DNA of 64,000 nucleotides from contig CAZWKE010000003.1 in the NCBI GenBank assembly GCA_964634205.1, positions 9,268 to 73,267 of the forward strand. The letters are read 5' to 3'. The translations under genes were made by a program, and so were the position numbers. Of this stretch, positions 5,758 through 36,269 are shown piece after piece; the first letter of the stretch is position 1, and the number at the start of each line of letters is the position of its first letter. The notes under the pieces were generated by a model. The model saw only the letters and a list, made by a program, of their open reading frames with translations, was not told the DNA's origin and searched no databases. Source of the DNA: an uncultured Spirochaetaceae bacterium. GTDB taxonomy: Bacteria > Spirochaetota > Spirochaetia > SZUA-6 > RPPD01.

Positions 5758-8016
5758 TTACACAAGATCCAGAATTTCGCGGATCTTTTTTTCCAGGGTA
5801 ACGATGGAAAACGGTTTTTGTAAAAAAAACGTCCCTTTTTTAAAGCCGTCTTTTTCTACGTACTCGTTTTCAAAATAGCCGGAGATAAAAAGAATCTTTA
5901 TGTTCGGCCGCAGCGCGAGCAGCCTTTCTGAAAGTTTTATACCGCTTAAATGCGGCATGACGATATCGGTAATCAAAAGATGGATGGGATCTTTATACTG
6001 CTCACAGATCAGCAATGCCTCGCCGGCATTGCTGGCCTCAAGCACATTATACCCGTATTTACCCAGAACCTTATACACCATCTCCCGAAATATGTCCTCA
6101 TCCTCAACCAAGAGGATTGATTCGGTCCCCTTTATAGGTGCCTGCACCTCCGCCGGTTCTTCATCCGGGGCCGCTTCCTCTTCCACCCGGGGCAGATAGA
6201 TATTGAAGTTTGTGCCGACACCCGGCGTGCTCTCAACAAAAATAAAGCCGTCACTTTGTTTTATAATTCCATATGCCGTGGAAAGCCCCAGTCCGGTCCC
6301 CTTGCCGGGAGCCTTTGTGGTAAAAAACGGCTCAAATATCTTCTCTTTTAACTCGTTGGCCATGCCGTGTCCCGTATCGGAAACCCGCAGCAACACATAC
6401 GGTCCGTTCTTTAAACCGATAAACTTTTCCCGGATTTGTTCGGTGATGGTGATATTCAGGCTCTCAATAGTAAGCTTCCCGCCTTCACGCATGGCATCAC
6501 GCGCGTTTAAGGCAAGGTTTATCAGTACCTGTTCAATCTGTACCGGATCGATTTTTACCTGCCAGAGTTTATCGTCCAGAATGGTAAAAAGAAGTATATT
6601 TTCCGGCAGCAGCCGCTTCAGCATTCGCTCCAGGTCCAGGATCAACGTATTAAGATTTATTATTTTCGGCTGCAGCACCTGCCTGCGGGAAAAGGCAAGC
6701 AACTGCTTGGTCAGGATGGCCGCTTTTTTGCCGGCCTTGAGGATGGAAACCACATCATTACGGATGCTGTCGTCTTCACCCACGGTTTCCAGAATAAGAT
6801 CCGAATATCCGATGATGGCGCCAAGCAGATTGTTGAAATCATGGGCAATTCCGCCGGCCAGACGGCCGATACCCTCCATTTTATTGGACTGAATAAGCTG
6901 GGCCTCTATTTTTTTCTGTTCCGTATTATCAATAATATATCCCTTGAACCGCTTCAACTCTCCGCTTTTTAAAAACTCTCCCACAATGTTGGCCGTAATA
7001 TAAAGGGGCTGCCGATTTTTGTTCATGAATTTGGTGTTATACTGTTTTAATCGTTTGTTTTTCTTCAACTGCTCTATCAGACCGTTTTTTTCAAATAATG
7101 CCGGGAAAAACAGTGACAGGTTTTTCTTCTCCACCTGCTCCACCGATTCATATCCCAGGATGGAAGCAAAGGCCTGGTTGCAAATCAGGATGATCCCGCC
7201 CGCGGTCGCTATAAAGTCGCCGGTCAGATCATCCTCGAAAAAATGCCGGTATCGCTCTTCGCTTCTATGGAGGGCCTGTTTGGCAAGCTCATGCGCCGTT
7301 ACGTCGTGGTATACGTAAACCTTCCCCATATTCTGTTCCGTCATACTCATAATGGGTGCCACACTTGATTTAATAAAGCGTTTTTCACCGTTTTTGGTAA
7401 CAAGTTGTTTGAACTGCCTGTTCCTGGTTTTTTCCGGACTTATATCATTCCCCGTATCTATAAATTTGACGATATCATTCAATTTTTTGCCCAGGGCCTT
7501 CGCCCTGTCTACGCCGGTAAAGGCTGCTGCTTTGGGATTAAAAAAACGGATGTTGTCCTCATTATCGGTGACCACCACCGCGTCACCGATACTTTGCAGT
7601 GTGGTAAACAGCAGCTGTTCCCGTTCTTTTATAATATTCTGCGTTTTATGCCGATAAAGCGCTATCTCAATATTGATGTGCAGTTCGCGTTCCTCGAACG
7701 GTTTAAGAATATAGCCGAAGGGCTCGGTTATTTTTGCGCGCTTTAAAGTGGTATTTTCCGCATAGGCGGTTATATAAACGATAGGCACCGCGTAGGTCTT
7801 GAGGATCTCCGCGGCCGCCTCCACCCCGTCCATTTTCCCGCTGAGCTTGATATCCATCAAAACCAGGTCCGGTCGGGATTCCAATACCATCGCAACCGCT
7901 TCTTCACCGGAAGAAGCGATCCCCGGGACCTCATACCCCAGCTTTTCCAGACGCTTTCTCATATCCAAGGAGACAATATTTTCATCTTCTACAATAAATA
8001 TGCGCTTCTTTTCCAT
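5758..8016 (-). CDS. Hybrid sensor histidine kinase / response regulator (REC-PAS-PAS-HisKA-HATPase-REC)
   Basis: 752 aa. N-terminal REC (IFIVEDE...LVLMDIKL). PAS-like repeats. HisKA H-box GGIAHDFNNLL. HATPase G-boxes DTGHGM and GTGLGLS. C-terminal REC (ILLVEDED...LLITDIVMP). No transmembrane segment, so cytoplasmic. Confidence 0.9.
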   Translation of the reverse strand: MEKKRIFIVEDENIVSLDMRKRLEKLGYEVPGIASSGEEAVAMVLESRPDLVLMDIKLSGKMDGVEAAAEILKTYAVPIVYITAYAENTTLKRAKITEPFGYILKPFEERELHINIEIALYRHKTQNIIKEREQLLFTTLQSIGDAVVVTDNEDNIRFFNPKAAAFTGVDRAKALGKKLNDIVKFIDTGNDISPEKTRNRQFKQLVTKNGEKRFIKSSVAPIMSMTEQNMGKVYVYHDVTAHELAKQALHRSEERYRHFFEDDLTGDFIATAGGIILICNQAFASILGYESVEQVEKKNLSLFFPALFEKNGLIEQLKKNKRLKQYNTKFMNKNRQPLYITANIVGEFLKSGELKRFKGYIIDNTEQKKIEAQLIQSNKMEGIGRLAGGIAHDFNNLLGAIIGYSDLILETVGEDDSIRNDVVSILKAGKKAAILTKQLLAFSRRQVLQPKIINLNTLILDLERMLKRLLPENILLFTILDDKLWQVKIDPVQIEQVLINLALNARDAMREGGKLTIESLNITITEQIREKFIGLKNGPYVLLRVSDTGHGMANELKEKIFEPFFTTKAPGKGTGLGLSTAYGIIKQSDGFIFVESTPGVGTNFNIYLPRVEEEAAPDEEPAEVQAPIKGTESILLVEDEDIFREMVYKVLGKYGYNVLEASNAGEALLICEQYKDPIHLLITDIVMPHLSGIKLSERLLALRPNIKILFISGYFENEYVEKDGFKKGTFFLQKPFSIVTLEKKIREILDLV

Positions 8017-8079
8017 AATAATTTAATGATTAATCATCTACTATAAAGAATAACGCGATTATACGAATTGTCAATAATG

Positions 8080-14700: not shown

Positions 14701-14725
14701 TTGTTATATTAATCTGTTTTGTTTC

Positions 14726-15751
14726 TTATTGGTTTCCCTGAGTATCAGTATTATTACTCTGTTCTTTATACATTTTCTGTTTTTCCAGAAAACGCAGGAT
14801 GTGCAGATTGCCAAGCCGCCTGATCTCAGCCTTCCTTCTGGCCTCTTCACGCTGCTGCATAATCCCCCATACCTGCTCATCATTTATATCAAGATTGAAA
14901 TCCTGCCAGGCCAGGTCGTACTTGACCTTTACATCTTTTACATAGGTTACAAAATCACCGCCGGTCTGTTGCGCGTCACGATAGATAATAATCCCTATGA
15001 ATTTGATAAACGGCTCGCTCTGGGGATAAAGCGGGAATACTCTCAGATCCCTGTCCCGTACATCGCTGATATAATTGGGATTTTCCCATTTCAGCCGTTT
15101 CCATCCGGCATAATTCAAATATCCAAAAAATATGGTCCGTTCCTCACCGTTCTGGTCTTTATAAATCAACCCGATACCGTGTGGAAAGTTCCTGCCGCTG
15201 ACAACCATCTGCATCTCTTTGATGGTGCCGACGTTTTTTATAATACCTTTATTGTCGAATTTATCACCCTTGCCCTTATTCTCATCACCTGCCTTATCCA
15301 TATATGCCGGAATCTCAAAAGGCGGCTTTATGATTGCATATGAATTGAATGCCGGTTCCGGGAAATGAATTCGCACGGCCAGAACCGCTTTACTTTTCAT
15401 GTCCTCGCCCTCAAAATCAGCTGCATTGGCAGTGGTCTGCGCTTCTTTGGCATAGGAATAGATAATATTTTCACGATACTGTGAGGATGAAGCCAGGTCA
15501 ACCTCCCAGTTACCAAGCGCCAGAGAAGTTTTTAACTTGTCCAACTCATCCGCGGGTACTTCAGCCCCGGCCTGGCTGCGGTAATCAACCATGGTGGCCT
15601 GGTTTTCGGTTGGTGTGGTTTCACCTTGTTTGGTTACATCCGCTTTTAAATCATTGAAATCAATGAGTACCTGTGGTTCGGTTACCTGGGCCACAGCCTG
15701 TACACAAATCAACACAAAGAGAACACCGAGCACAAAACATATCTTTTTCAT
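14726..15751 (-). CDS. flaA: Flagellar filament outer-layer (sheath) protein FlaA-like
   Basis: 341 aa. Signal peptide MKKICFVLGVLFVLICVQAVAQ, then ...VLIDFNDLKAD. Size and the N-terminal LIDF motif match spirochete FlaA. Lies next to chemotaxis and flagellin-glycosylation-type genes. Confidence 0.55.
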   Translation of the reverse strand: MKKICFVLGVLFVLICVQAVAQVTEPQVLIDFNDLKADVTKQGETTPTENQATMVDYRSQAGAEVPADELDKLKTSLALGNWEVDLASSSQYRENIIYSYAKEAQTTANAADFEGEDMKSKAVLAVRIHFPEPAFNSYAIIKPPFEIPAYMDKAGDENKGKGDKFDNKGIIKNVGTIKEMQMVVSGRNFPHGIGLIYKDQNGEERTIFFGYLNYAGWKRLKWENPNYISDVRDRDLRVFPLYPQSEPFIKFIGIIIYRDAQQTGGDFVTYVKDVKVKYDLAWQDFNLDINDEQVWGIMQQREEARRKAEIRRLGNLHILRFLEKQKMYKEQSNNTDTQGNQ

Positions 15752-15788
15752 TTTTTGCTCCTTTTATTAAAGTCTTTCTAGGTCTAAA

Positions 15789-15816: not shown

Positions 15817-15855
15817 CGAATTTATTTTTTTTTTAAAATCCTGTAAAATTCTGAT

Positions 15856-16497: not shown

Positions 16498-16500
16498 GTT

Positions 16501-21599: not shown

Positions 21600-22546
21600 A
21601 ACTCGATCAGACTCTTTGCGTCCCTTCTGAATCTGTATTTATTCAGGATTACCCACTTTCGTACGTTGAGGAACTCTTTCAGGGAGGTAATAATCCCGGT
21701 ATTCGATTTTATCATGTAGCGGAAAAAATGCCTGAACGGCAGCACCCCGCGGTCGCTTCTGAAATCCACACACAGGTTTTTCAGGTAAAACAGTTTATAG
21801 CTTTCATCGGGGGTGTTGTCCTCAAAGGACAACTCATAATTGTAATGAAACAGCAGGGAAGTATTACAGACAATATTTTCTCCCCATAGAAAACACCTGA
21901 AACCAAAATCGGCCTTCTGCCAGAAAGGGGTGGTGATATTCCCGTCGAATCCGCCGCACAAACGGTATTTTTCCTTATTATAAATACCGCAGTAATCGAA
22001 GGCGAACAGGCTTTTCATACCGTCGCGCAGGGGGTTCCACGGGATGATTTTAAAGGCCTTCTTTTCATACCCCGGTGTCTGGATACTGGGGATTGTATCA
22101 CCTTTTTTATTTTTCAGAATGGGAACCGTACATAGTGCGTTTTGGTGCAGGATTTTTTCCAGTACCCGTGCGGCAAGCGAGCTTTGGGATATCTTCATAT
22201 CGTTCCAGATGATAAACACCAAGCGGGACATGGCCTCTTCTATTCCGATATTCACTTTTTCCCCGGCGGTGCATTTTTCATGCAGCAAGAGAAACCGGAC
22301 ATTGGGATAGCGGCGGGAGAGGCTCTCCACATCATACGCAATATCCGGCCCCTCAATGAAGATAACCTCAAGGGACTCTTTCCGGGGCAGATCGTTGAAT
22401 ACATCATGCTGGAACAGCCTGCCCCCCCGGTTTAAGATGACGATCGAGACGGGAAAAAGGTATTTGCTTACGCGGGGTTTCGGCGCTCCGCCCATTACCG
22501 TATAGGATATTTGCGGGCGTTTAAAAATTGTAGGTGTAGTACTCAT
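21581..22546 (-). CDS. Glycosyltransferase-like protein (degenerate GT-A/GT2 fold)
   Basis: 321 aa. FPVSIVILNRGG...QHDVFNDL resembles a GT2 N-terminus. No clear DXD motif. In an operon with the sugar-nucleotide enzymes. Confidence 0.35.
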   Translation of the reverse strand: MSTTPTIFKRPQISYTVMGGAPKPRVSKYLFPVSIVILNRGGRLFQHDVFNDLPRKESLEVIFIEGPDIAYDVESLSRRYPNVRFLLLHEKCTAGEKVNIGIEEAMSRLVFIIWNDMKISQSSLAARVLEKILHQNALCTVPILKNKKGDTIPSIQTPGYEKKAFKIIPWNPLRDGMKSLFAFDYCGIYNKEKYRLCGGFDGNITTPFWQKADFGFRCFLWGENIVCNTSLLFHYNYELSFEDNTPDESYKLFYLKNLCVDFRSDRGVLPFRHFFRYMIKSNTGIITSLKEFLNVRKWVILNKYRFRRDAKSLIELWEDPE

Positions 22547-24014
22547 CGCATTCTTTACAGATATCGGGATATTCTTCCTTTAAATGCCGGAGATAAAAAT
22601 CGTTGCCCCGGTCCCAGATAACGGCCGGGTCATCCTGTAAAAGATTGCCCAGAACATGCTGCTTGTTGATGTCCTCCCTGCAGAGGCTGACACTGCCGTC
22701 CAGAAAAACCGCAATGTCCCGTTTAATATGCCAGCAGGGAAAACGTTTCAGGGGTGAAAGGTCCGTTACCCTGTACTGCGGCAGAAAACCGGAAAAATAA
22801 TCATACTTTTGAATAATAATATTTTCCGTGGTTTGTTTCCATTGCTTATAGAATTTTTCAAGCTCATCCTCATTCTGCTGCATACGCACGGCCTGGACAA
22901 ATACATTTCGACCGAAGGTCTCAAGCAGTATTTTGGTATTTTCCATGGCCTCGGCAAAACCCTGCCCACGCAAGGTGTTGTAACACGCTTCACTGATCGC
23001 ATCCAGCGAAACAATCCAGCGGCAGCGATCACGTACATTGCCGCTTAATGACTGCAGGGCCTTCGCGTCCCATCCCAGGGCGGATGTCTCAATTACCAGT
23101 TTGAAGGACGGTATCTCGCATACTTTTTCGATTAGCTCATATGCCTTGCTGTGCAGCGAATGCTCGCCCCATAACGAAAAGCCGATGACCGCGTCCTCAC
23201 AGAATCCCCGTATTTTCTCCAGTATTTTTTCAAAATCCTCCGGGGCCATTTCACCCTTTTTCCCCAGCATATCGGGTCTGAATTTGGGGTACGGACAGTA
23301 TGAGCATTGCTGCGCGCAGCCCTCCACGGTCTGAACCAGAAAATAAACGGGCAGCGTGCGTAATATTTCCTTGTGTTCCTGTAAGGCCTTCAGTATTTCC
23401 TGTTCCGAAAACGCCCCGTACTCCGCCAGCCGTTTTAATAAAAAGAAATTCCTTCTGCAGTCCGCGGACAGGCCGGCACGCAGCAGACGCAGGTCAACGG
23501 GAGATATCTCGGTCTCCAGGTCAAATGAGTTGATGTCCTTCTTTATCAGCTCAAACAGGCTGTTCCGGTCCGGTACCGTGATTTCATCTTCACCCAGCAG
23601 GTTCAGCAAGGGCGTTAGAATATAGGGTTTCAGGATTTCCGGGGTAAGTCCGTAGGGATACCCGTCGGCAAAGGTGTAATCCGCAAAATAGGTCTTATGA
23701 TTCGCGTACATGCGTTTTGTGATCTCACTGTTCAAAAACATACAGTCCGCGTAGAAATAAAAAATATTATCAAACCCCTCGGCCTTTTCTTTTATTCGGC
23801 GCAGCATTTCTCCCGTGGTCCAATGCTCATCCTGCAGGGACTCATACTGTTTTAATTCCCTGCAGGGTGAAGAAAGCAGAACCAGGGTCTTTTCGACCTC
23901 CGGGAGGCTCCCGATGTATTCTTTCACAAAATCAAGGGGGGTCTTCCCGCTCCGCACGTTTTCAAGGGCATAGGGAGAGAGATTAATTCCGTTTACTATG
24001 GCTATATTTTTCAT
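22521..24014 (-). CDS. Radical SAM / SPASM-domain enzyme with a ~220-aa N-terminal extra domain
   Basis: 497 aa. 4Fe-4S cluster motif CAQQCSYC (CxxxCxxC) at about residue 225. C-terminal Cys-rich auxiliary-cluster region CWHIKRD...SLCRED...CKECDEY. The N-terminal 220 aa precede the radical SAM core. Confidence 0.7.
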   Translation of the reverse strand: MKNIAIVNGINLSPYALENVRSGKTPLDFVKEYIGSLPEVEKTLVLLSSPCRELKQYESLQDEHWTTGEMLRRIKEKAEGFDNIFYFYADCMFLNSEITKRMYANHKTYFADYTFADGYPYGLTPEILKPYILTPLLNLLGEDEITVPDRNSLFELIKKDINSFDLETEISPVDLRLLRAGLSADCRRNFFLLKRLAEYGAFSEQEILKALQEHKEILRTLPVYFLVQTVEGCAQQCSYCPYPKFRPDMLGKKGEMAPEDFEKILEKIRGFCEDAVIGFSLWGEHSLHSKAYELIEKVCEIPSFKLVIETSALGWDAKALQSLSGNVRDRCRWIVSLDAISEACYNTLRGQGFAEAMENTKILLETFGRNVFVQAVRMQQNEDELEKFYKQWKQTTENIIIQKYDYFSGFLPQYRVTDLSPLKRFPCWHIKRDIAVFLDGSVSLCREDINKQHVLGNLLQDDPAVIWDRGNDFYLRHLKEEYPDICKECDEYYTYNF

Positions 24015-24073: not shown

Positions 24074-27000
24074 TTATTTCTCCGGAATGAGTTCCAGAAT
24101 AAGTTCAACCTCACCGCGCGAGAGTTTGGTGGCCCTGGCAATCTCCTGAACCGACCAGCCCTGATGGGCGAGTTTCACTACCGTCTGCCGTTTATCACTT
24201 GAAGGGGCCCCACGGTCCTTTTTGGTCTGGGCCACCTCTTCCTTGATCAGACTTTCCAAAAGTCGCAGCTGTTCCTGGGCCTGGGTATTTACCTGTTCCA
24301 GCCTTGTCTCGGCCCGGGCCAGCCATTCCCTGGCGATATTCAGTTTGTCCATCCGTGCCTCAAGCTCCAGAATCAGGTGATCAATACCTTCCATTTTATC
24401 GACCACGGCGTCGGTCTTTTCCTTGTTGGCGCTGATAAGCTCAATCTCCGCTTTCAGTTCCTTTATCAGGGAGGGTATCCCCTTCATTTCCTTCTGCATT
24501 TCACCTAATGATTTGTCAAGACCGGTGAGCTTTTGAAAATTCTTATCCACTCCCTGGGTCGTGCTGTCCAGTACCTTCTTTTTCTGTTCCAGGCGGGCAA
24601 AACGGGTATCTACCTCTTTTTCCAGATCTTCGAGTGTTCTCATTTTCAGCTCCAGCTCCTGGACCGCATCGTAATTTGTAGTAATATTCACAATCTTGGC
24701 GTCTATTTCATGTGAGATGGAAATAAGGCGTTTAAAATCGGTTTCCATGCTGTTGATACGCTTTTTCTCGGTCACAAATTCCCTGACCTTGGCGGACATA
24801 TCATCCACGAGCTTTCTAGTGGTGACAAACTCTTTGTTGATGGCGTCCACGTCCTTTTTATACGCCGATATCTTGACGAGCTCCTTTTTCATGGAGTCGA
24901 TATCACTCTCAAGGTTGATTTTAAGTGTATCCGCCCGTTCAAATATTTTTGTCTGGGCCACAAAATTCTTCTGCTGTTTTTCTATCTCGCTTAATCCCTG
25001 CCCCAGACCGGAGGCCTTTTCCACCAGTCTATCAAGCTCATCCTTTAGGTGCGCCCTTTCCTTGGTGGTCGCGTCTATCAGATCGTTCTTCTGTTCCGCA
25101 AAATTCTTTTCCAGCGTCGTAAAGGTGGTGGAAAACAGGGTTTCCAACTCGGTTTGACGCTCCACAAAACTATGCTGCAGTGAGTTCAAAGCCGAATTAA
25201 ACGTTTCTTCCAATTCCTGCCGGCGTTCATCAACATCCTGTTTCAGGGTATTAATTCTTGCCGACGAATCCTCTGTCAGTCCGGAAAGCTTTTCAGATAT
25301 ATCCTGCTCCGAATCCTGGTATTTCTGCAGTATTTCCTCGTGCCACTGGCGGGCTTCCTCCGTAGTGCCGGAGAAGTAAGCGGAAAGCTTTTCCCGGGAA
25401 TTCTTGAAATTCTCCTCAAGCTGCTTAATATTTTGCTGTACGTCGATTTTCCCGTCTTCCAGCGCCTTGAACATCGAGGCAATATACCCGTTAATCTCAG
25501 CCTGGGTGCTGTCCAGTTTGGTATCGATAGCCTCGCGCAGCTCCGCTTCCTTTTCCTGCATGGCCCGGCCGGCCGCGCTTTCGATGCTGCGGATATTTTC
25601 CTGTTTGATGGTTTCGATCTTGGTGGAGACCTCTTCCTGGAACTCTTCTATTACCTTTCGCAGTGCGTCACTGCGCTCCCTGAAATCATTAAAGAAATCA
25701 TCCTCAAGTACGCTTAATTTCCCTGATACATTTTCGTACGCCCTGGTTTTCAAGGTATTTATTTCAGCTTCGATATTCTCAATTTCTTCCCGGTAATTCT
25801 CCAGCTCCGCGGCCGCCCTGGATTTCTCCGCACTGCGTTCATCCGCCAAAAGCTTGTTAAAATCGCTGAAATCATGCCTGATCTTCTCCGTGATCCCATC
25901 CATATAATCACGCAGGGATTTTTCCATGGATTCAATATCCACATTACAGTCTTCAAGTTTTTTAAATTTAAAGGAAATCTCCTCTTCATAGGTTCCCAGC
26001 CGCTCTTCTACGCCTTTTGTATACTCATCCATTTCCGCGGCCGCCTGCTCCCGGGCAAGCCTGGTCTGATGAAAATCCTCTTCGTATTTTTGTATGCTCC
26101 GAGCGATTTCGGTCTTCCTGTGCTCGAAGGCCTGTACCATGGATTCTATATTCTCGTTTATTTCAGTCCGCGTCACGTCTATTTTGGAGTCGATAAACTC
26201 ACGCAGCTCATGTTCCTTTTCTTCCAAAGTATCCGCCGCCATACTTTCGATCGTCGTATTATTCTCCTGTTTAATCTGTTCAATCCGCGTCAACACCTCT
26301 TCCTGGAACTTATCCAGGCTGGTTTGGACGGCCAGGCTTCGTTCCTTAAAATCGGCAAAGAAATCATCTTCCAGGATTTGCAGCTTTTCGGATACATTTT
26401 CATATGCCGTGGTTTTCAGCGCCTTTACCTCGGAATCGATACCCTCTATCTCGTTTCGTATCCGGGAAAGCTCCCGGTCGGCCTTGGCGGTTTCCGCCGA
26501 GCGTTCTTCTTCCAGACGGTTTCCAAAGTCTGAAAAATCACTTTTGATCTTATCGCTGACACCCGCCATATACGCGCGCAGTGATTTTTCAAGCTCTTCA
26601 ATATCTACATTGCAATCTTTTAGTCTCTGGAACTTATAGGCAAGCTCTTCATCATAGGTTTCCAGCCGTTGTTCCACGTTTTTGGTAAAATCTTCCATTT
26701 CCAGCGATACACTTTCCTGGGTATCCCTGGCCCGGTTTAAGAAATCGGTCATACCGGCGCTGACCTCATTTTCCAGATCACGCAGCTTGGCGGAAATCTG
26801 TCGTTTCAGGTCCTTCATCTGTTTGTCCAGTTCCACGTGCCAAACGTTTGCGTCGGAACGCAGTACCCCGAACATCTCCCCGATCTCTTTCTTCTTGGTA
26901 TCAAGGTCGGTATTCACCCGCTTGAAGTATTCCTCGATTTCATAAGCCTGCTCCCTGGCCTTTTTATCGATAGACTCTTGCAGGTTATGGAACACCTCAT

Positions 27001-27940
27001 CATTAAAGGTCTCTCCCCGTACCGCCGCCTTTTCCAGCTGCTCATGGAACATCTTTTCGATTCGGGTGTACTGCTCCTTAAAATCCTCGATCTTTGCGGC
27101 ATACTCCGCATCAAGAGCCTGTGAAGTATCGTGAACCGTCTCCAGCATGGTTCGCAGCTCCAGGGTGATCTTTTCCTGTTCCTCCTGCGCACCGCTGATA
27201 ACCGCGCCGGTTTCGGAAGAAAGCTCGCTGATCCCCTGTTTTCTACGCTTGATGATCTCTTCATCCAGGCCGGACAGGAGTTCCCGATAGGCCTTTTCAG
27301 CGGTTTTCACCACCTCTGATCTGCGTTCCTCAAGCTTTTTCACGTACCCCGCCACACCGGTGACATTCTGTTCGATTATATGCAGATTTTGTTCAAGTTC
27401 CTCAATGCTGTCGCGATGTGTATCAAGCAGTTTTTTACGGATCTTATCCAGTTCAAGCCTGTTTTTCTCCGTAGATTTAGTCAGCGCGTTCTCCAGGGAC
27501 GTTTCCAGTTTGGTGATACGGTGCGAGACATCTTTTACCTGTGAACCTACCCGGTCGATAAAAACCGATTCATCCTTGATACGCGAAAGATTCTCATCAA
27601 CCCTGCCGGACATGGCGACAAGCTCATTTAACGTACCCGCGTAATTGTCTACGGTGGCTTTCATATTTTTGAAATCACCCTCTTTGGCCTTTAGGGCTTC
27701 TTCAAAAGTGAGAATCCGCTTTAAAACCTCTCTGCTCTTTTTCAGATTAAGATCCAGATCGACCGCGATATCATTAATCTCAACGGTTTTTTCCTTGATA
27801 AACACGGATATTTCTTCTTTCAGTTTGTCCGAAAAGCGTTTTACCTTTTCCAGACTTCTGTTGCGCTTATCAAGCGTTCTAAAGAGGATTACAATAATAA
27901 TAACTACCAAAAATGTAGGCAGGCTGAAAGTGTAGTCCAT
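24074..27940 (-). CDS. Giant membrane-anchored coiled-coil protein with a C-terminal helix-turn-helix
   Basis: 1288 aa. N-terminal transmembrane helix FSLPTFLVVIIIVILF. About 1150 aa of charged heptad-like sequence (E/K/L-rich). C-terminus LAHQGWSVQEIARATKLSRGEVELILEL is HTH-like. Very strong RBS GGGAGGGGAG. Confidence 0.55.
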   Translation of the reverse strand: MDYTFSLPTFLVVIIIVILFRTLDKRNRSLEKVKRFSDKLKEEISVFIKEKTVEINDIAVDLDLNLKKSREVLKRILTFEEALKAKEGDFKNMKATVDNYAGTLNELVAMSGRVDENLSRIKDESVFIDRVGSQVKDVSHRITKLETSLENALTKSTEKNRLELDKIRKKLLDTHRDSIEELEQNLHIIEQNVTGVAGYVKKLEERRSEVVKTAEKAYRELLSGLDEEIIKRRKQGISELSSETGAVISGAQEEQEKITLELRTMLETVHDTSQALDAEYAAKIEDFKEQYTRIEKMFHEQLEKAAVRGETFNDEVFHNLQESIDKKAREQAYEIEEYFKRVNTDLDTKKKEIGEMFGVLRSDANVWHVELDKQMKDLKRQISAKLRDLENEVSAGMTDFLNRARDTQESVSLEMEDFTKNVEQRLETYDEELAYKFQRLKDCNVDIEELEKSLRAYMAGVSDKIKSDFSDFGNRLEEERSAETAKADRELSRIRNEIEGIDSEVKALKTTAYENVSEKLQILEDDFFADFKERSLAVQTSLDKFQEEVLTRIEQIKQENNTTIESMAADTLEEKEHELREFIDSKIDVTRTEINENIESMVQAFEHRKTEIARSIQKYEEDFHQTRLAREQAAAEMDEYTKGVEERLGTYEEEISFKFKKLEDCNVDIESMEKSLRDYMDGITEKIRHDFSDFNKLLADERSAEKSRAAAELENYREEIENIEAEINTLKTRAYENVSGKLSVLEDDFFNDFRERSDALRKVIEEFQEEVSTKIETIKQENIRSIESAAGRAMQEKEAELREAIDTKLDSTQAEINGYIASMFKALEDGKIDVQQNIKQLEENFKNSREKLSAYFSGTTEEARQWHEEILQKYQDSEQDISEKLSGLTEDSSARINTLKQDVDERRQELEETFNSALNSLQHSFVERQTELETLFSTTFTTLEKNFAEQKNDLIDATTKERAHLKDELDRLVEKASGLGQGLSEIEKQQKNFVAQTKIFERADTLKINLESDIDSMKKELVKISAYKKDVDAINKEFVTTRKLVDDMSAKVREFVTEKKRINSMETDFKRLISISHEIDAKIVNITTNYDAVQELELKMRTLEDLEKEVDTRFARLEQKKKVLDSTTQGVDKNFQKLTGLDKSLGEMQKEMKGIPSLIKELKAEIELISANKEKTDAVVDKMEGIDHLILELEARMDKLNIAREWLARAETRLEQVNTQAQEQLRLLESLIKEEVAQTKKDRGAPSSDKRQTVVKLAHQGWSVQEIARATKLSRGEVELILELIPEK
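25370..26701 (-). repeat. Diverged in-frame tandem duplication (2 x ~666 bp, 2 x ~222 aa) inside the giant gene
   Basis: Protein residues 414-635 and 636-857 align colinearly (EMEDFTKNVEQRLETYDEELAYKFQRLKDCNVDIEELEKSLRAYM versus EMDEYTKGVEERLGTYEEEISFKFKKLEDCNVDIESMEKSLRDYM, roughly 50% identity). DNA identity is only partial, so the duplication is ancient. Confidence 0.8.
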
Positions 27941-27984
27941 TGCTCCCCTCCCATGGGATATTTGTCTTTTATATTATCTCACCC

Positions 27985-28047
27985 TATACGTATTGTCAAT
28001 TATTTTTTTAACATTTTTCTATTATACGTATTGTAACCGACAATAGG
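27985..28047. promoter_or_regulatory. Operator-like cluster with the TATTGT/ACAATA half-site
   Basis: TATACGTATTGTCAAT at 27985..28000. TATACGTATTGT-AACCG-ACAATA at 28023..28045, a perfect TATTGT-N5-ACAATA palindrome carrying the same TATACG prefix. The inverse half-site TTGACAATA recurs at 28094..28102. Confidence 0.5.
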
Positions 28048-28060
28048 TATCCCGACCTCA

Positions 28061-28090
28061 ATTTTACAATATTTTACAATTTTTTACACC
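28061..28090 (+). promoter_or_regulatory. Three tandem 10-bp direct repeats abutting the -35 box: OmpR/PhoB-type response-regulator binding-site architecture
   Basis: ATTTTACAAT, ATTTTACAAT, TTTTTACACC at a 10-bp period. They end 3 nt before TTGACA at 28094. Confidence 0.5.
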
Positions 28091-28093
28091 AGG

Positions 28094-28127
28094 TTGACAA
28101 TAGTGGGCGAAAGCAGGGTATTATATA
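28094..28127 (+). promoter_or_regulatory. Sigma-70-like promoter for the HK/RR operon
   Basis: TTGACA (28094..28099), spacer 19 (or 18), then TATTAT (28119..28124). Confidence 0.4.
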
Positions 28128-28142
28128 AGTACGAGGGATCGA

Positions 28143-30068
28143 TTGAAGGCCCGTAAAAAAAGAATACATAGCATGCACCTCATTATCATTCTGGCCGCGG
28201 TCATCATTATTCCCGGAATAATACTTGGGATATTGGCCTTGCGCGCGATCGAAAGAGAAGAAGCATATATCGAAAAAAATTTTACTCTGACCCTGACGTC
28301 CGAAGTAAACAGCGCGGTCACCCTGGTGGATAATGAAATGAAAGCCGTCCGGGATGAGTTGTCCGCCGTGATCCGTTTCCCGGAAGAACGGAATGCCGCC
28401 CTTGCGCTGCAAAAGATGCGGCAGGATTCCTCTCTGATCGGCCTCCCCTTCCTGCTTTCATCGCATCGCGTGGTAGTCTATCCCCCCCGCACGAAGCCCC
28501 CTTCGCAGGAAGAGTCTCTGCTTGAAAAACAGAACCGGGAGCTGTTTGAAGACACGGTTTCCATTCCGGTCTATAAGAACATCGTCAAGGAGTATAAAGA
28601 CACCATTTTAAATGAAGACGTACAGTCCACAGCCCCGAATCAGGCACCGGCCGAAGCGGTCCCGCAGAAAGGGGACAATGCGCCCAGGCAAAGCGAATCG
28701 GCCAAAGCCCTGCAGGAGGAGATTGAGACACAACAGGCGATAAACCGCTTTAACAATTCCGAACCCCTGCGTCAGAAGATTTATAAACAGGCCAGGGAAC
28801 AGGGGCAGGAGGTACTGGTAAGAAATATTATTCTTCCGGCGGACAATTCCGACGCACTGAACAAACAGTGGTCATACTTCATCCTGGAATCCCATACCTT
28901 CAGCCAGATTATCGGGAAGGCCTCCCGGGGAATTATCCCCCGTTTTATCGAAGACAAGCTGTACCTGTTATACTGGAAGAAAAATACGCGGGACTCGGTT
29001 GTAGGGTGTGTGATCGATATCGATGCTTTAAAGCAGCGCCTGCTGCAGGTCATGCCCCGGGTATTTTCACAGACCCGCATCCTGGTGATCCTTGATGAAA
29101 AAGCCAAACCCCTGGTTGTTCCCGAGGGAGAAGAACAGCGGCAGTGGTTTACCCCTTTTGCCGCGCAGGAAATTTCAGAGCTCTTGCCCCGCTGGGAAAT
29201 TGCCGCGTATCTTACCAATCCGAACGTCATCAGGGACAAAGCCCAGTCGACCGCGCTGGTACTATGGATTTTGATCGCGTTTCTGCTTGTGGCCCTGTTT
29301 CTGGGCGGGGTGTTTTTGACCGGGCTGCTGATGGGCCAAATGAAGCTGGCCCAACAAAAAACCAATTTTGTGGCCAATGTTTCCCATGAACTGAAAACAC
29401 CGCTGACCTCCCTGCGTTTGTTTGCCGAGTTATTACGTGACAACAGGCAGCCTGACGCGGCAAAACGTAAGCAGTACCTGGAAACCATGGTTTCCGAAAC
29501 CGAGCGCCTTACCCGGCTTATCAATAATGTACTGGATTTTACGCGGATGGGAAAAGGGAAAAGAAACTATCACCCGCGGCCGTGCGATATCGGCGGATTA
29601 TGCGAAGATATAATCCGGGCTCAGCGGGCACGCTTGGAACATAAAGGGTTTACCGTAAAAATCACCTGCCCTGCGGGGCCGGTCACGGCCCGTATTGATG
29701 AAGAAGCCCTAAAACAGGTTATGATCAACCTGTTGTCAAACGCGGAAAAGTATTCCGGGAACAGAAAAAGTATTGAGGTAACAGTATCCCGGGACACAAA
29801 CAATGTCATCATTAATATTCTGGACAGGGGACCGGGCATTCCCCCGAGACTTTCGGAAAAGATCTTCAAAGAGTTTTACCGGGTGGACGATTCCCTGACG
29901 GCCGCGGTGAGCGGCAGCGGCCTGGGACTGTCCATCTCCAGAAAAATATTGCGTGACCATGGTGGTGACATCCGCTACCTCCCGCGCAGCGGGGGAGGAA
30001 GCCGTTTCCGGATTTTTATACCAAAGGGAGAAAACGAGCATGCGAAAACAAAAGATTCTCATTATTGA
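28143..30068 (+). CDS. Sensor histidine kinase (two transmembrane helices with a large periplasmic domain)
   Basis: 641 aa from the TTG at 28143 (with a GAGGGA Shine-Dalgarno); alternative ATG at 28173. Transmembrane helices at about residues 12-35 and 370-395. HisKA H-box VSHELKTPLTSL. HATPase motifs DRGPGIP and GSGLGLSI. Confidence 0.85.
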   Translation: MKARKKRIHSMHLIIILAAVIIIPGIILGILALRAIEREEAYIEKNFTLTLTSEVNSAVTLVDNEMKAVRDELSAVIRFPEERNAALALQKMRQDSSLIGLPFLLSSHRVVVYPPRTKPPSQEESLLEKQNRELFEDTVSIPVYKNIVKEYKDTILNEDVQSTAPNQAPAEAVPQKGDNAPRQSESAKALQEEIETQQAINRFNNSEPLRQKIYKQAREQGQEVLVRNIILPADNSDALNKQWSYFILESHTFSQIIGKASRGIIPRFIEDKLYLLYWKKNTRDSVVGCVIDIDALKQRLLQVMPRVFSQTRILVILDEKAKPLVVPEGEEQRQWFTPFAAQEISELLPRWEIAAYLTNPNVIRDKAQSTALVLWILIAFLLVALFLGGVFLTGLLMGQMKLAQQKTNFVANVSHELKTPLTSLRLFAELLRDNRQPDAAKRKQYLETMVSETERLTRLINNVLDFTRMGKGKRNYHPRPCDIGGLCEDIIRAQRARLEHKGFTVKITCPAGPVTARIDEEALKQVMINLLSNAEKYSGNRKSIEVTVSRDTNNVIINILDRGPGIPPRLSEKIFKEFYRVDDSLTAAVSGSGLGLSISRKILRDHGGDIRYLPRSGGGSRFRIFIPKGENEHAKTKDSHY

Positions 30069-30738
30069 AGACGATCGTGCCATTATCACGGGCATACGCG
30101 ACCTTTTGCAAAGTGAGCACTACGCCGTTTCCATTGCTTACGACGGCAGGACGGCCCTGGAACGCTACCGGCAGGACAGACCTGACCTGGTGCTGTTGGA
30201 TATCATGATCCCCGAAAAAAGCGGGTATGAGGTATGTAAAGAAATCCGCAAAACGGACCGTGCCACACCGATTGTTATGCTGACAGCCAAATCGCAGGAG
30301 GTGGATAAGGTAGTGGGCTTTGACCTGGGCGCGGACGATTACGTCGTCAAACCATTCGGGGTGCAGGAACTGCTTGCCCGCATCCGCACCTGTCTGCGCC
30401 GCAGCAGTCCGCAGGAAAAGCATCCCGACAATAGTGAAATCAGTTTCGGCAACGTCCGGATTAATCCCAAAACGCTTCAGGGCAGAAAGGGCAAAGAGGA
30501 GTTTCCCCTGGTACAGCGCGAGGTTGACCTGCTGCGCTATTTTCTGGATCACGAAGGCGAGGTGCTGGACCGGTTTGCCCTTTTGGACAAGATTTGGGGA
30601 TTGAGTTACGGCGGTACCACCCGCACCCTGGACCAGCACATCTCCAAACTGCGCCGGAAGATTGAGGATGATCCGGCCCGGCCCAGACATATCATCACTG
30701 TCCATACCGTGGGGTACAAATTCAGCAGAGGCGCATAG
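30040..30738 (+). CDS. OmpR-family response regulator (REC + winged-helix)
   Basis: Starts at ATG 30040 (MRKQKILIIEDD) after RBS AAAGGGAG. The track ORF extends upstream without support. DLVLLDIMIP carries the phospho-Asp. C-terminal VHTVGYKF is an OmpR-type wing. Overlaps the HK 3' end by 29 bp. Confidence 0.85.
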   Translation: MRKQKILIIEDDRAIITGIRDLLQSEHYAVSIAYDGRTALERYRQDRPDLVLLDIMIPEKSGYEVCKEIRKTDRATPIVMLTAKSQEVDKVVGFDLGADDYVVKPFGVQELLARIRTCLRRSSPQEKHPDNSEISFGNVRINPKTLQGRKGKEEFPLVQREVDLLRYFLDHEGEVLDRFALLDKIWGLSYGGTTRTLDQHISKLRRKIEDDPARPRHIITVHTVGYKFSRGA

Positions 30739-31082: not shown

Positions 31083-32117
31083 TTACAGCTTCCGGCAGGA
31101 ATCGCGGATAACCGGTTCGGCCTCCAGAACGGTTTCACGCGGGCAATGCTCGGCCGAAACGTGGGCCAGAATTTTTTTTACCGCAAGTTCCGCCAGTCCG
31201 GCGTAATCCTGCTTTACGGTGGTTATTCCCGGGACATAGTGCTTTGAGATAAAGATATCATCAAACCCCGTCACGCTGATATCACCGGGTACGGAGAAGC
31301 CTGCCTTAAAAACCTGTTTTATGGCCCCTAAGGCCAGGGTATCATTCATGCACATGACCGCACTGGGCCGGTCTTTCAACCGCAGAATCTGTTCCATGCT
31401 TGAGGCCCCGCTGTCCACAAGGTAACGGCCGCAGACGATCCATTCATCCCGTATTTCCAGATTGTGCGCGGCAAGTTTCTCCTTGAACACCTCTATCTTT
31501 TCTTCGGTGATAAGGAATCCCCTGTCGCCCGTGATCAGCCCGATCTTCTTGTGATTGCACGAAAGTACATAATCGATGATTTTGGCAAATGCTTTCCTTT
31601 CATCAGTGCGGACTATATAGCAGTTGTTGATATCGATTTTGCTGTTGATAAACACCACGGGGACCCTCTCGCTTAAGGACCTTATTTCCTTTAAAAATGA
31701 GGATTTGGGATTTTTCTGGTTGGCCTTGCCGCCGAGAAAAATAAAGCCGTCCACCTGTCTTTTCTCGATCAAATGCAGCAGTTCGGTCTCATTTTCCTGC
31801 CAGCTGTTGATTATACCGAACAACAGGGTATAGCCGACGGAGGTACAGAACAGTTCCGCCTCATTACAGATGGTGACAAAAAAAGGGTTGGAAAGCTCCT
31901 CTACCAACATGCCGATAGTGTTCGAAACACGATTACAAAGCGCCCGGGCAATAAGGTTGGGTTCATAATTGCACTCATCAATAACCCGCTGGACCTTTTC
32001 CCGGGTATCTTCCCTCACGTTCAGTTTGCCGGTCAACACCCGGGAGACCGTGGCGATGGACACACCTGCCCTTCTGGCGATATCATAGATGGTAATATGA
32101 TCCTTCAGCAGGCTCAT
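31083..32117 (-). CDS. LacI-family transcriptional regulator
   Basis: 344 aa. N-terminal HTH ITIYDIARRAGVSIATVSRVLTG. Followed by a periplasmic-binding-protein-like sugar-binding fold. Confidence 0.85.
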   Translation of the reverse strand: MSLLKDHITIYDIARRAGVSIATVSRVLTGKLNVREDTREKVQRVIDECNYEPNLIARALCNRVSNTIGMLVEELSNPFFVTICNEAELFCTSVGYTLLFGIINSWQENETELLHLIEKRQVDGFIFLGGKANQKNPKSSFLKEIRSLSERVPVVFINSKIDINNCYIVRTDERKAFAKIIDYVLSCNHKKIGLITGDRGFLITEEKIEVFKEKLAAHNLEIRDEWIVCGRYLVDSGASSMEQILRLKDRPSAVMCMNDTLALGAIKQVFKAGFSVPGDISVTGFDDIFISKHYVPGITTVKQDYAGLAELAVKKILAHVSAEHCPRETVLEAEPVIRDSCRKL

Positions 32118-32167
32118 ACCTTAATTGTACACCGTGTTGCCGTGTTATATCAAGAAATTAATACCGT

Positions 32168-32202
32168 ATAAAACTGATGCCGGGGGCCCGGATCAGGCCC
32201 CC
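32168..32202 (-). terminator. Putative terminator downstream of htrA
   Basis: GC-rich 7-bp stem GGGGGCC / GGCCCCC (32182..32202). On the minus strand a T-run follows after 8 nt. Confidence 0.35.
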
Positions 32203-32208
32203 ACAAGC

Positions 32209-33756: not shown

Positions 33757-33890
33757 GATTACACACCTCCGTCTCCTCTTATCATATTAAACAAAATATT
33801 CCTCTAAAAGTAACAGTTCTTCCTTTCTCTATAAAAAATAACAATATTTCAGGATAAAAATCAATATGTAGTGAATGTTCAAAATGCGAA

Positions 33891-35462
33891 TTACTGTACC
33901 GGAAAAGATACCTCAAAACAGGCACCACCCTGCGGTCTGTTGTATACGCCGATGCTGCCGTCGTAGCTTTCCACGATAACCTTGACGATCGACAGGCCCA
34001 GACCGGTGTGTTGGTTCTCACCGCCGTTTTTCTGCCGGAATGAAAAAAACCGTTCAAAAATCTTTTCCCGATGTTCATCGGGAATACCCGGTCCGTTGTC
34101 ACTGACGCGAACAAGCGCGTTTCCGTTATTTTGCTCCAGGGAAAGCTCTACGGTCCCGTTTTTTTCGGAAAAACTAATGGCGTTATCGATGATGTTTTCC
34201 AAGACCTGGGCAATCCGTTCCGGAGAAGCGGGGACGGTCACCGGTTCCTCGGGGATATGAAGGCTAAACGCAATTGTCCTGTGACGCATCTTGAACGCTT
34301 CGGCCACATGCAGGCACAGGGTATTCATGTGGACGGGCTCCTTTGATTCCTGGGCCAGACTGGCGTCGATCTTGGTTATCTCCCGCGCACCGGTGAGTAA
34401 TCGCTCCATTCTGGCGACATCTTTCTGGATCATCTTCAGGAATTTTATGCGTTCCCGGTTCTCATCGGTCATCAGCGCGATGTCCGTTGCCGAACGGATG
34501 GAGGCCAGGGGGTTTTTAAATTCATGAGAAATGTCCGCGGCAAAGGATTCGATAAAGCTGAGATGCTGTTCCAGCCTGCTGGTAAGGGAGGTCAGGGAGC
34601 GGGACAGGTCCCCGATCTCATCCATACGGTGTGTCTGCCTGATATGCCTGGTAAGCCGCCCGCTATGGTCAAGCACCGCCTCGGCCTCCTTTCTCAGCTT
34701 GTCAAGCGGACGCGCGATGGTGCCGGACAATACTATGCTTAATACAATGGCCGCGAATATTGAATAGAGGAAAACCTTGACAATTCCCTGACGCACTTCA
34801 TAGAGGTCTACCAGTATCCTGTAGGTGGATTGAGAAACCAGGACCACGCCCACCACCGAATTAAAACTGCGGATGGGAATGGCGCTGTAAAGGATGATCG
34901 ACTGTTGGCCGCCGATTGCGTACCGCGTGGTGGCCCCGTATCTCCCCTCAAGGGCGGCCTTGATTTCCGGACCTAAGAGGGGTTTACCGAAGGTATAATA
35001 ATCCGCGGTTTCCAATTCCGGCTTGGGGGGACCGTACCAATCACGGAAAAGGCGTATCGGGGTGAGGAAAAGATCGTACACCCAGTTCGGCCGCTCCCCT
35101 TGCGGCTGTCTTTGTTCGGCATAACCCTCGGTAGCCGGTGTCGTGATCTCTTTCTTCTGAAACAGAGCACTGGAATCCGCCAGCAGATTGCCCTGCTCGT
35201 CAACGATCCTCAGCCTGGACTTCATTCTCCCCTTAAGCCGCTTCAATAAATTTTGCGCGGTATCCTGTTCCAGAAAACCGCGATCGGCCAGGGCGGCGGC
35301 CAGAATTCTTCCCTGCTGCACCATATCATCTTCCTGTGCTTTCAGAAGCTGTTTTTCATAGACATCAAGAAAAAACACCGCGCTTACCGGCACAATAACC
35401 AGCAGCAGGTTAAAGGCAAGAAGCCGCCAAACAATACGGGAAAAAAATCTCAGTAGTCTCAT
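33891..35462 (-). CDS. Sensor histidine kinase (EnvZ/CpxA-like: 2 TM, HAMP, HisKA, HATPase)
   Basis: 523 aa. Two transmembrane helices. H-box ISHEFKNPLASI. HATPase motifs DNGPGIP and GLGLSIV. Confidence 0.85.
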   Translation of the reverse strand: MRLLRFFSRIVWRLLAFNLLLVIVPVSAVFFLDVYEKQLLKAQEDDMVQQGRILAAALADRGFLEQDTAQNLLKRLKGRMKSRLRIVDEQGNLLADSSALFQKKEITTPATEGYAEQRQPQGERPNWVYDLFLTPIRLFRDWYGPPKPELETADYYTFGKPLLGPEIKAALEGRYGATTRYAIGGQQSIILYSAIPIRSFNSVVGVVLVSQSTYRILVDLYEVRQGIVKVFLYSIFAAIVLSIVLSGTIARPLDKLRKEAEAVLDHSGRLTRHIRQTHRMDEIGDLSRSLTSLTSRLEQHLSFIESFAADISHEFKNPLASIRSATDIALMTDENRERIKFLKMIQKDVARMERLLTGAREITKIDASLAQESKEPVHMNTLCLHVAEAFKMRHRTIAFSLHIPEEPVTVPASPERIAQVLENIIDNAISFSEKNGTVELSLEQNNGNALVRVSDNGPGIPDEHREKIFERFFSFRQKNGGENQHTGLGLSIVKVIVESYDGSIGVYNRPQGGACFEVSFPVQ

Positions 35463-36160
35463 GCGGGGTTCTCTAAGCGATAACGGTATCCCAAACCGTA
35501 TACGGTCTCGATATAAGAGAAGCTTTCATCAACCGCCATAAACTTTTTCCGCAGGCGTTTGATATGACTGTCTATGGTGCGGTCACTCACAAAAATATTA
35601 TCAGGGTAGGCCTCTTCCATCAGTTGGCTGCGGGTCTTGACAATTCCGGGGTGTTTGATCAGGGACTGCAAAAGCATAAACTCGGTAATGGTCAGGGGGA
35701 GTGAGGCCTTCTTCCATTTTGCCGTATAGCGCTGTAAATCAAGCTCCAGACTGTCAACCAAAAGGCGTTGCGTGATGTCATCTGTTTTTTCCGAGAGGGC
35801 AAGACGGCGAAACAGTACCTTTACCCGTGTTACCAGTTCGCGCATTGAAAACGGTTTGCACAGATAATCGTCCGCGCCGATCTCAAGCCCCAGCACCCGG
35901 TCGAACTCTTCGTCCTTTGAGGTAAGAAATATTATAGGCAGGTGTTCGGTGACCGCCCGCAGTTTCCGGCACAACTGCAGACCGTCCATCATGGGCATGA
36001 TGATATCAAGGATCAACAGGTCCGGCATATTCCGGCCGAAGGCCTCCCAAGCCTCCTGTCCATTGGCATACGTCTCGGCGCTGAATCCTTCTTTTATTAA
36101 TGCATAGGCCACGGTTTCGCGAATATTTTTTTCATCATCGACTATCGCTACTTTATACAA
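35459..36160 (-). CDS. OmpR-family response regulator
   Basis: 233 aa. MYKVAIVDDE, LLILDIIMP, and a winged-helix C-terminus (YGLGYRY). Its start overlaps the HK stop by 4 bp. Confidence 0.85.
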   Translation of the reverse strand: MYKVAIVDDEKNIRETVAYALIKEGFSAETYANGQEAWEAFGRNMPDLLILDIIMPMMDGLQLCRKLRAVTEHLPIIFLTSKDEEFDRVLGLEIGADDYLCKPFSMRELVTRVKVLFRRLALSEKTDDITQRLLVDSLELDLQRYTAKWKKASLPLTITEFMLLQSLIKHPGIVKTRSQLMEEAYPDNIFVSDRTIDSHIKRLRKKFMAVDESFSYIETVYGLGYRYRLENPA

Positions 36161-36269
36161 TACTACCGTCCTCCTTTTGCCTAGTTACTATATCATAGAG
36201 AAAATAGTTCTCCAAGTAAGCATAATAACTTCCATATTATTTTCATAGTTTGCCTTATTTTCTCCATAT

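Follow-up and report, generated by a model that had tools for sequence, protein, structure and literature searches.

A conserved TTTAC repeat array and a probable pair of back-to-back promoter modules at a spirochaete two-component operon

Results

The divergent spacer and its motifs

A 64,000-nucleotide stretch of DNA from an uncultured Spirochaetaceae bacterium (contig CAZWKE010000003.1; the whole stretch is designated the window) contains a 202 base pair (bp) spacer between two divergent transcription units. Leftward runs the gene for a giant coiled-coil protein of the SpiroCoCo family, and rightward an operon in which a sensor histidine kinase gene is followed by the gene for an OmpR/PhoB-family response regulator. 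The original prediction for this region, made from the nucleotide sequence, had named a giant transmembrane (TM) coiled-coil protein, a histidine kinase, and an OmpR-type regulator as the flanking genes, and these identities are borne out. The spacer probably consists of two independent promoter modules, placed back-to-back and joined by a stretch that is not conserved. The kinase-side module carries an array of phased TTTAC repeats that recurs at every orthologous spirochaete locus compared. Features are collected in Table 1.

All motifs of the original prediction are present where it had placed them, by reading of the sequence and by a repeat search that agrees with it. TATACGTATTGTCAAT occupies 27985-28000, and its part TATACGTATTGT recurs at 28023-28034. 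The palindrome TATTGT-AACCG-ACAATA spans 28029-28045, ATTTTACAAT is found at 28061-28070 and again at 28071-28080, TTTTTACACC follows at 28081-28090, and TTGACA is at 28094-28099, within TTGACAATA, which extends to 28102. Chance expectations were taken from 2000 dinucleotide-preserving shuffles of the 202-bp spacer. A perfect palindrome with six-nucleotide arms and a loop of at most 10 nucleotides (nt) was reached by 46% of shuffles, and such a palindrome is therefore trivial taken alone. Arms of 11 nt with at most one mismatch were reached by 2.6%, and an exact direct repeat of at least 12 nt by 0.35%. Three identical 6-mers phased at 10 or 11 bp never occurred (0/2000), and three such 5-mers occurred once (1/2000).

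Table 1. Features of the spacer and of related sites, in window coordinates.
Feature	Position	Strand	Basis or remark
Giant membrane-anchored coiled-coil gene, 1288 amino acids (aa), SpiroCoCo family	24074..27940	-	profile matches
Sensor histidine kinase gene (HisKA and HATPase_c; large N-terminal domain without characterisation)	28143..30068	+	
OmpR/PhoB-family response regulator gene (REC and Trans_reg_C winged helix)	30040..30738	+	
Four tandem half-sites: TTTAC at 28063, 28073, and 28083, and TTGAC(A) at 28094; spacing 10/10/11 bp	28060..28101	+	conserved in 10/10 orthologous loci
-10-like hexamer TATTAT, 19 nt after TTGACA	28119..28124	+	aligns with TAGTAT of L001 and L016
Shine-Dalgarno (SD) sequence GAGGGA 28133-28138; kinase start TTG 28143; alternative start ATG 28173	28133..28145	+	sequence reading
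Predicted sigma-70-type promoter of the giant gene: TTGACA 27999..27994, 17-nt spacer, TAATAT 27976..27971	27971..27999	-	consensus scan 10/12
A-tract block directly 5' of the giant-gene -35	28000..28026	-	AAAAAAATAATTGACAA invariant in 4 lineages
Giant-gene leader: SD GGGAGGGGAG 27943-27952, perfect 10-bp palindrome TCCCATGGGA 27949-27958	27941..27968	-	alignments
12-mer TATACGTATTGT, copy 1; overlaps -35 and spacer of the giant-gene promoter	27985..27996	+	TATACG part not conserved in relatives
12-mer copy 2 (28023-28034) with inverted third copy, forming palindrome ATACGTATTGT-AACCG-ACAATAGGTAT (28024-28050)	28023..28051	.	lineage-specific
Fourth box copy, TATACGAATTGTCAAT (TTGACAATTCGTATA when read on the minus strand); matches box A at 15/16 positions	8060..8075	-	5' of hybrid histidine kinase gene

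A TTTAC array that travels with the kinase/regulator operon

Orthologous loci represent ten distinct lineages: the window, L001, L002, L003 (= L015), L016 (= L017), L018-L021, L022, L023, L024, and L025. Kinase identity to the window is 61-69% for L001, L002, L003, L016, L018-L021, L022, and L023, 44% for L024, and 41% for L025. One more locus, L028, belongs to the window organism itself (100% identity) and is counted together with the window; it is therefore uninformative about strain-level retention of the palindrome. A metagenome scan with the kinase sensor domain returned a single locus, identical to L003, and further loci were obtained through protein look-ups. The kinase has full-length orthologs in uncultured Spirochaetaceae and Spirochaetales.

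Phylogenetic footprinting finds the same element in all ten lineages, just 5' of the kinase gene: three TTTAC units, then nTGACA 11 bp farther on. TTTAC is invariant at 30 of 30 sites and TGACA at 10 of 10, with a consensus of TTTTACA(a/t)T for the repeat, while the sequence flanking the array cannot be aligned across lineages. The phase is 10 bp in nine lineages; L024 has 11 bp for all four units, not 10/10/11. There is one exact triple repeat per locus, always directly 5' of the kinase, and the 14 retrieved loci with the exact pattern, together with the window and L024, make up the ten lineages. The array is kept even at 41-44% kinase identity (L024, L025).

The original prediction had called for a genome-wide motif scan; the counts here cover the window. 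The pattern TTTAC-N5-TTTAC-N5-TTTAC is unique in it, single copies of ATTTTACAAT with at most one mismatch are at background (9 found, 8.15 expected), and TATTGT-N5-ACAATA has no other convincing copy in the 64 kb, the full palindrome being unique. A position weight matrix (PWM) built only from the ortholog sites detects tandem pairs in the window at 28060-28101 alone (21-25 bits), apart from one weak intragenic pair, where about 0.9 pairs are expected per shuffle. Single PWM half-sites are common, with 154 at 7 bits or more.

The gene 5' of the array varies. It is the giant gene in the window, L001, and L016; a gene for a 65-72 aa membrane protein, followed by the giant gene, in L002, L003, L018, and L023; an ankyrin-repeat gene in L022; and unrelated genes in L024 and L025 (PNP_UDP_1 is among the upstream genes seen). 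L022 has the array beside the kinase and none in the region upstream of the SpiroCoCo gene, and the array therefore belongs to the kinase/regulator operon. In L002 the giant-gene module lies about 400 bp from the array, beyond the small gene. The two promoter modules are therefore independent, separated here by a whole gene.

An array was sought but not found at the non-spirochaete homologs L026 and L027, where the kinase lies within an ARPP-1/VWA operon, and none is present 5' of the second regulator operon in the window. The kinase family itself extends at full length far beyond the spirochaetes, at 40-47% identity in Aminicenantes, Omnitrophota, and Eisenbacteria. In L026 (489-4917) and L027 (1950-5112), both from European Nucleotide Archive (ENA) assemblies, the kinase directly follows ARPP-1 (PF20208); in L026 a VWA gene intervenes.

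Two further observations concern the surroundings of the array in relatives. L018, of the L018-L021 lineage, has an additional TTTTTTACAAT unit at 3828-3838, 31 bp 5' of the array. The gene for the 65-72 aa predicted membrane protein, between SpiroCoCo promoter and array, was located in L002 (5570-5767), L003, L018 (3579-3797), L022 (1243-1440), and L023 (3492-3689), and is absent from the window, L001, and L016. In these five lineages its own TTGAC(T) -35 abuts repeat 1, at about 7 bp in L002 and L003.

The suggestion in the original prediction that the phased 10-bp repeats are activator sites of OmpR/PhoB-family type, serving the regulator encoded 3' of them, is strengthened by the footprinting, which over ten loci describes a constrained element that moves with its operon. 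The array has the form of a direct-repeat site, its units following one another at 10-11-bp periodicity. It is strongly conserved in the sequences compared and is probably a docking site of the neighbouring two-component regulator, which would regulate its own synthesis.

It is very unlikely that the phased T-tracts act without a dedicated protein, as intrinsically curved DNA or as an UP-like element stimulating the promoter. Runs of T4-T6 do occur every 10 bp directly 5' of the promoter, and the A-tract block conserved at the giant-gene promoter is similar. For curvature a T-tract alone would suffice, yet the AC after it is invariant in 30 of 30 sites, in the fourth unit TGACA is invariant though no T-tract is present, and L024 keeps the motif at an 11-bp phase.

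The candidate cognate regulator

The regulator encoded at 30040..30738, in the operon directly 3' of the array, combines REC and Trans_reg_C domains and is the candidate cognate winged-helix protein. Its best solved relative is RegX3 (2oqr, E = 2e-55). NCBIfam equivalog models score 158 bits for CpxR (cut-off 341), 198.8 for PhoB (296.2), and 179.8 for OmpR (331), all below cut-off as is every other equivalog model, and the protein is therefore not an ortholog of any of the three. The spirochaete orthologs share the recognition-helix region GGTTRTLDQHIAKLRQKIEDDP without change save at one Ser/Ala position; the window has SKLRRK. Conservation of the array in 10/10 lineages between variable flanks, together with co-conservation of the recognition helix, argues for purifying selection on the array and for its linkage to this regulator across species.

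A different OmpR-family regulator, such as that at 35459..36160 in an adjacent cluster of kinase and HtrA-like protease genes, might bind the repeats instead, a cross-regulation that we consider quite unlikely. The TTTAC-N5-TTTAC core equals the CpxR box in sequence, CpxR-type systems classically control DegP/HtrA, and the second kinase/regulator pair and the HtrA-like protease lie 2-8 kb away and are syntenic in L016 and L023. However, the array is kept in L018, L022, L024, and L025, whose retrieved flanks show neither the protease nor the second system. The second regulator differs from the first in its recognition-helix region and lacks a TTTAC array in its own upstream region, and both regulators fall short of the CpxR cut-off (158 bits, cut-off 341).

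The second system itself occupies 31083-36160 on the minus strand, where an OmpR-type regulator, a HAMP kinase, an HtrA/DegP-like protease (Trypsin_2-PDZ-PDZ), and a LacI-family regulator are encoded in a row. L016 and L023 keep this arrangement 3' of their first system, as does L028 from the window organism. Repeats in the region upstream of the cluster (36161-36300) are of ATGGA type rather than TTTAC.

Geometry of the kinase-operon promoter

The TTGACA next to the repeats had been called a -35 box, but its spacing is not that of a canonical one. A consensus scan for a plus-strand promoter using TTGACA 28094 with a 16-18-nt spacer found none, and the hexamer was rejected as a canonical -35 for want of a -10 at 16-18 nt. 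We defined a -10-like hexamer as one with at least 4/6 matches to TATAAT, A2 and T6 being required, at 13-24 nt after nTGACA. All ten lineages have such a hexamer 19-21 nt after nTGACA, and it is the sole qualifier in that range save in L024, where a second lies at 17 nt. A normal -35 would sit 2-4 bp nearer, and the invariant TGACA is therefore placed too far 5' to be one. We read nTGACA, 11 bp after repeat 3, as a fourth regulator half-site that would substitute for the -35 by the logic of PhoB promoters. By this analysis the operon promoter would comprise four tandem half-sites with a CpxR-like core, and would be activator-dependent and autoregulated in the manner of OmpR/PhoB-type systems.

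The 641-aa form of the kinase, with the TTG start, is the version of public gene callers (P0001), and its K/R-rich N-terminal stretch is homologous to that of the orthologs. About 40-60 nt of leader present in L001 and L016 have been lost from the window, among them the ancestral ATG and a TATACT element that is otherwise invariant; this loss is why the array is only 50 bp from the start codon. The distance from the -10-like hexamer to the kinase start is 40-130 nt longer in orthologs (L001 1440-1520, L016 1990-2070, and L002 5896-5962, compared with window 28125-28175). In that ortholog leader, a T(G/A/T)G(A/C)A-like hexamer precedes the invariant TATACT by 17 nt, possibly a second promoter. 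RNAalifold gave zero consensus pairs in a search for a conserved hairpin in the ortholog leaders.

The SpiroCoCo gene, its promoter, and its leader

Membership of the giant protein in the SpiroCoCo family is clear from NCBIfam models, with 316.5 bits for SpiroCoCo_C (cut-off 125) and 206.8 bits for SpiroCoCo_N (cut-off 75). Among Pfam models, DUF6115 passes its cut-off (29.9 bits, cut-off 27) and DUF2802 remains under its own (25 bits, cut-off 33.5). A literature search on the SpiroCoCo name and on LA_3659 found no paper using the name. When the window protein (24074-27940) is compared with that of L002 (2408-5410), the first ~95 aligned residues are nearly identical and the last 140 are 85-88% identical, and a length difference of about 290 aa reflects internal coiled-coil repeat blocks that were gained or lost.

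The giant gene has hexamers and a spacing within the 16-18-nt range of a predicted sigma-70 promoter, and both the -35 and the spacing are conserved in L001, L016, and L002. The A-tract block behind the -35 may be UP-element-like. The leader ACAAATATCCCATGGGAGGGGAGCAATG, about 30 nt, is nearly invariant as DNA in four lineages whose kinases are only 66-69% identical. This module would thus be a strong sigma-70-type promoter made up of an A-tract/UP-like block, TTGACA, 17 nt, TAATAT, and an invariant leader. As a separate observation, the leader is better conserved than any element flagged in the original prediction, and with its GGA-rich SD it could be a post-transcriptional control site.

The conserved -35 bears directly on the supposed operator sites. 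Read on the opposite strand, box A, TATTGTCAA (27991-99), is TTGACAATA, the giant-gene -35 plus 3 nt. The original prediction had gathered the TATTGT/ACAATA sites into one operator class; this class largely dissolves once box A is recognized as the conserved giant-gene -35 and box C as repeat 4 of the array, and the central palindrome alone remains. 'Half-sites' containing TTGACA in divergent regions are often simply the two -35 boxes, and some caution is due when they are interpreted.

A palindrome without conservation

The central palindrome is longer than first described, with 11-nt arms ATACGTATTGT and ACAATAGGTAT that are 10/11 complementary (28024-28050), and as an inverted repeat it has half-site centres about one helical turn apart. 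It falls in 28027-28061, the sole stretch of the spacer without conservation, and is absent from all relatives compared (L001, L016, L002, L018, L023). A search of the orthologs for equivalent palindromes of other sequence found none. The related motif ACAATWSGTAT occurs three times in 70 bp and once more at 8060, and ACAATWSGTATA, allowing at most one mismatch, has four hits in the window, all intergenic, where 0.83 are expected (1 of 100 shuffles reaches this count). At 8060-8075, too, the copy is joined to a TTGACA that lies on the coding strand of the gene downstream. That intergenic region lies 5' of a gene for a hybrid REC-PAS-HisKA-HATPase-REC kinase (5758..8016, minus strand) and beside tRNA-Val (8128-8201).

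The palindrome can fold as RNA (z = -3.2), yet it lies 5' of both predicted starts and has no T-run. Because it is 5' of both predicted promoters (-10s at 27971-27976 and 28119-28124), it is probably untranscribed. No terminator-like site was found in the region, and an Rfam search of the region gave zero matches with E < 0.2.

Two candidate partners for the palindrome were rejected. Its arms do not qualify as extra half-sites of the array regulator, the left arm scoring 8.7 bits and the right arm -1.3 where single half-sites are common. The LacI-family neighbour was set aside because its gene is conserved where the palindrome is absent and because the odd centre is the wrong geometry; LacI operators are even palindromes centred on CG.

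As the original prediction had it, the region is a two-input switch in which a dimeric helix-turn-helix (HTH) protein, perhaps the tail of the giant protein, binds the TATTGT/ACAATA sites and an OmpR-type regulator binds the repeats, together controlling the giant gene and a glycosylation operon. We consider this highly improbable. The rarity of its 10/11 arms among shuffles (2.6%) and the four ACAATWSGTAT copies speak for the palindrome as a site, and the proposed protein partner has a suitable predicted fold. In an AlphaFold2 (AF2) model the C-terminal ~40 aa form an HTH-like three-helix bundle (pLDDT ~85-88). By Foldseek this bundle superposes on HTH domains of the LuxR/NarL/GerE, Pax, and resolvase types with a probability of 0.99 and a root-mean-square deviation of 0.5-1.7 A over 33-41 residues, and the description as an HTH tail is therefore structurally fair. 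The corresponding E-values, however, are only 0.08-0.7. The C-terminal 140 aa are 85-88% identical, and the HTH near-invariant, in L002 and L018, both of which lack the palindrome, and the one related domain with a characterised role, DUF2802 of FipA, a protein of the same layout, binds the protein FlhF, not DNA (PMC11620751). For these two reasons the tail is a poor candidate for a palindrome binder, and only the predicted fold survives of the claim made for it.

Other parts of the switch fare no better. Two of the three half-site locations are otherwise explained, as the conserved -35 and as repeat 4, and the third, missing from all relatives, sits in the one part of the spacer that is not conserved. 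As L022 illustrates, the repeats go with the kinase and not with the giant gene. In the window, genes 3' of the giant gene encode radical-SAM, cytidylyltransferase, methyltransferase/glycosyltransferase, ATP-grasp, amidase, and FlaA proteins, but the glycosylation genes are not syntenic in relatives. In L002 and L018 a convergent gene follows the giant gene instead, and the proposed link to a glycosylation-associated operon is therefore not conserved.

A narrower alternative drops the tail and the glycosylation genes. Here the palindrome and the 12-mer boxes would be a species-specific operator of an unnamed dimeric regulator, repressing the giant-gene promoter and at least one other (8060-8075, of the hybrid kinase gene). 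Although we doubt it, this deserves more weight than the two-input switch. The exact 12-mer duplication is rare in shuffles, the intergenic excess of ACAATWSGTATA includes an extra copy fused to TTGACA, and the 17/27-bp odd-centred geometry suits dimeric HTH proteins. On the other hand, the sites are unconserved in every relative, copies 1 and 4 have no partner half-site, recurrence was judged within 64 kb of the genome, and no small HTH gene is adjacent. The LacI-family neighbour is conserved in L016, L023, and L028 (the same organism), but the palindrome is absent from L016 and L023. From the sequence comparison, the palindrome and the duplicated 12-mer most likely arose recently in this lineage, as a young operator or as a feature without function, and are not a conserved second input. 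A function for the palindrome is doubtful.

Wider neighbourhood

On the giant-gene side, the window from 8269 to 24014 is a motility neighbourhood encoding CheY, CheX, CheW-CheR, CheA, the spirochaete flagellar sheath protein FlaA (14726..15751), and an amidase. The ATP-grasp, methyltransferase/glycosyltransferase, cytidylyltransferase, and radical-SAM/SPASM genes of the same interval may be a flagellin-modification set.

Discussion

Two modules that were predicted to form one switch are better described, in all probability, as independent promoters. For the kinase-side module we propose that the phosphorylated regulator encoded at 30040..30738 binds head-to-tail as two dimers to the four half-sites, which would cover about -70 to -33 relative to the predicted start. 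The promoter-proximal half-site would replace a properly spaced -35, and the bound regulator would recruit RNA polymerase, giving positive autoregulation of the kinase/regulator operon, that is, activation rather than repression.

Known systems show the same elements in other combinations. The E. coli pho box reportedly has tandem repeats of about 11-bp period (work of Makino and Blanco); the proximal repeat is said to fill the -35 region of a promoter that has no correctly placed -35 and needs phosphorylated PhoB. The 19-21-nt gap to the -10-like hexamer seen here fits that logic. The repeat differs, CTGTCAT as opposed to TTTACA, as does the number of units, the regulator is under the PhoB cut-off, and there is no link to phosphate genes. 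OmpR at ompF and ompC binds contiguous 10-bp half-sites (GTTACA/TTTAC-like) as head-to-tail dimers abutting the -35. The present regulator, in contrast, is not an OmpR ortholog and has a single array of four half-sites in an apparently dedicated autoregulatory context. SenX3-RegX3 of mycobacteria, an autoregulated OmpR/PhoB-type system, supplies the closest solved regulator but differs in phylum and in sensor kinase. The enterobacterial cpxRA operon is likewise autoregulated. Read on the other strand, the pentamer of the array is that of the CpxR box, GTAAA-N5-6-GTAAA with 10-11-bp periodicity (PMC9600279), present three times in phase on the minus strand and next to an OmpR/PhoB-family regulator. 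Unlike CpxRA, the system here has no CpxR ortholog (158 bits against 341), has three TTTAC units plus an invariant TGACA where the box has two units, and has a different sensor domain. The giant protein, for its part, resembles FipA of polar-flagellate gamma-proteobacteria in its N-terminal TM helix, coiled coil, and small C-terminal helical domain, but is about eight times longer, and its DUF2802 match is under the Pfam cut-off.

Several points weigh against the model of independent modules with an autoregulated array. Its transcription starts are placed from hexamers only, and with TTG 28143 as start codon the kinase would have a leader of only about 12 nt. Through DNA curvature alone, phased T-tracts can have an effect, and another OmpR-family regulator, one being encoded 5 kb away, could use the array. 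For the palindrome, both the 12-mer duplication (0.35% of shuffles) and the near-copy at 8060-8075 (4 hits, 0.83 expected) exceed chance, so that its lack of function is not proven. The relatives, moreover, are distant (kinase identity at most 69%), and binding sites turn over at such distances.

The kinase/regulator pair and the SpiroCoCo gene are neighbours, and divergent, in seven of the eight lineages with at least 61% kinase identity (window included), and are one gene apart in the eighth. On the most speculative interpretation, the two would be a conserved functional unit in which the array regulator also governs the giant cytoskeleton-like protein, and, in the lineage of the window, a palindromic operator of recent origin, repeated at the giant-gene -35 and at 8060, adds a species-specific second input. 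We judge this unlikely; if true, it would mean that a regulatory input was born inside a conserved divergent promoter.

The regulatory logic proposed for the array, an autoregulated OmpR/PhoB-type promoter, is already textbook material. What the comparison does is separate the parts under selection from the rest of an intergenic region full of conspicuous motifs. For an uncharacterised kinase/regulator family of uncultured spirochaetes, whose kinase has full-length relatives in several phyla, it offers a concrete putative DNA target, TTTTACA three times followed by TGACA.

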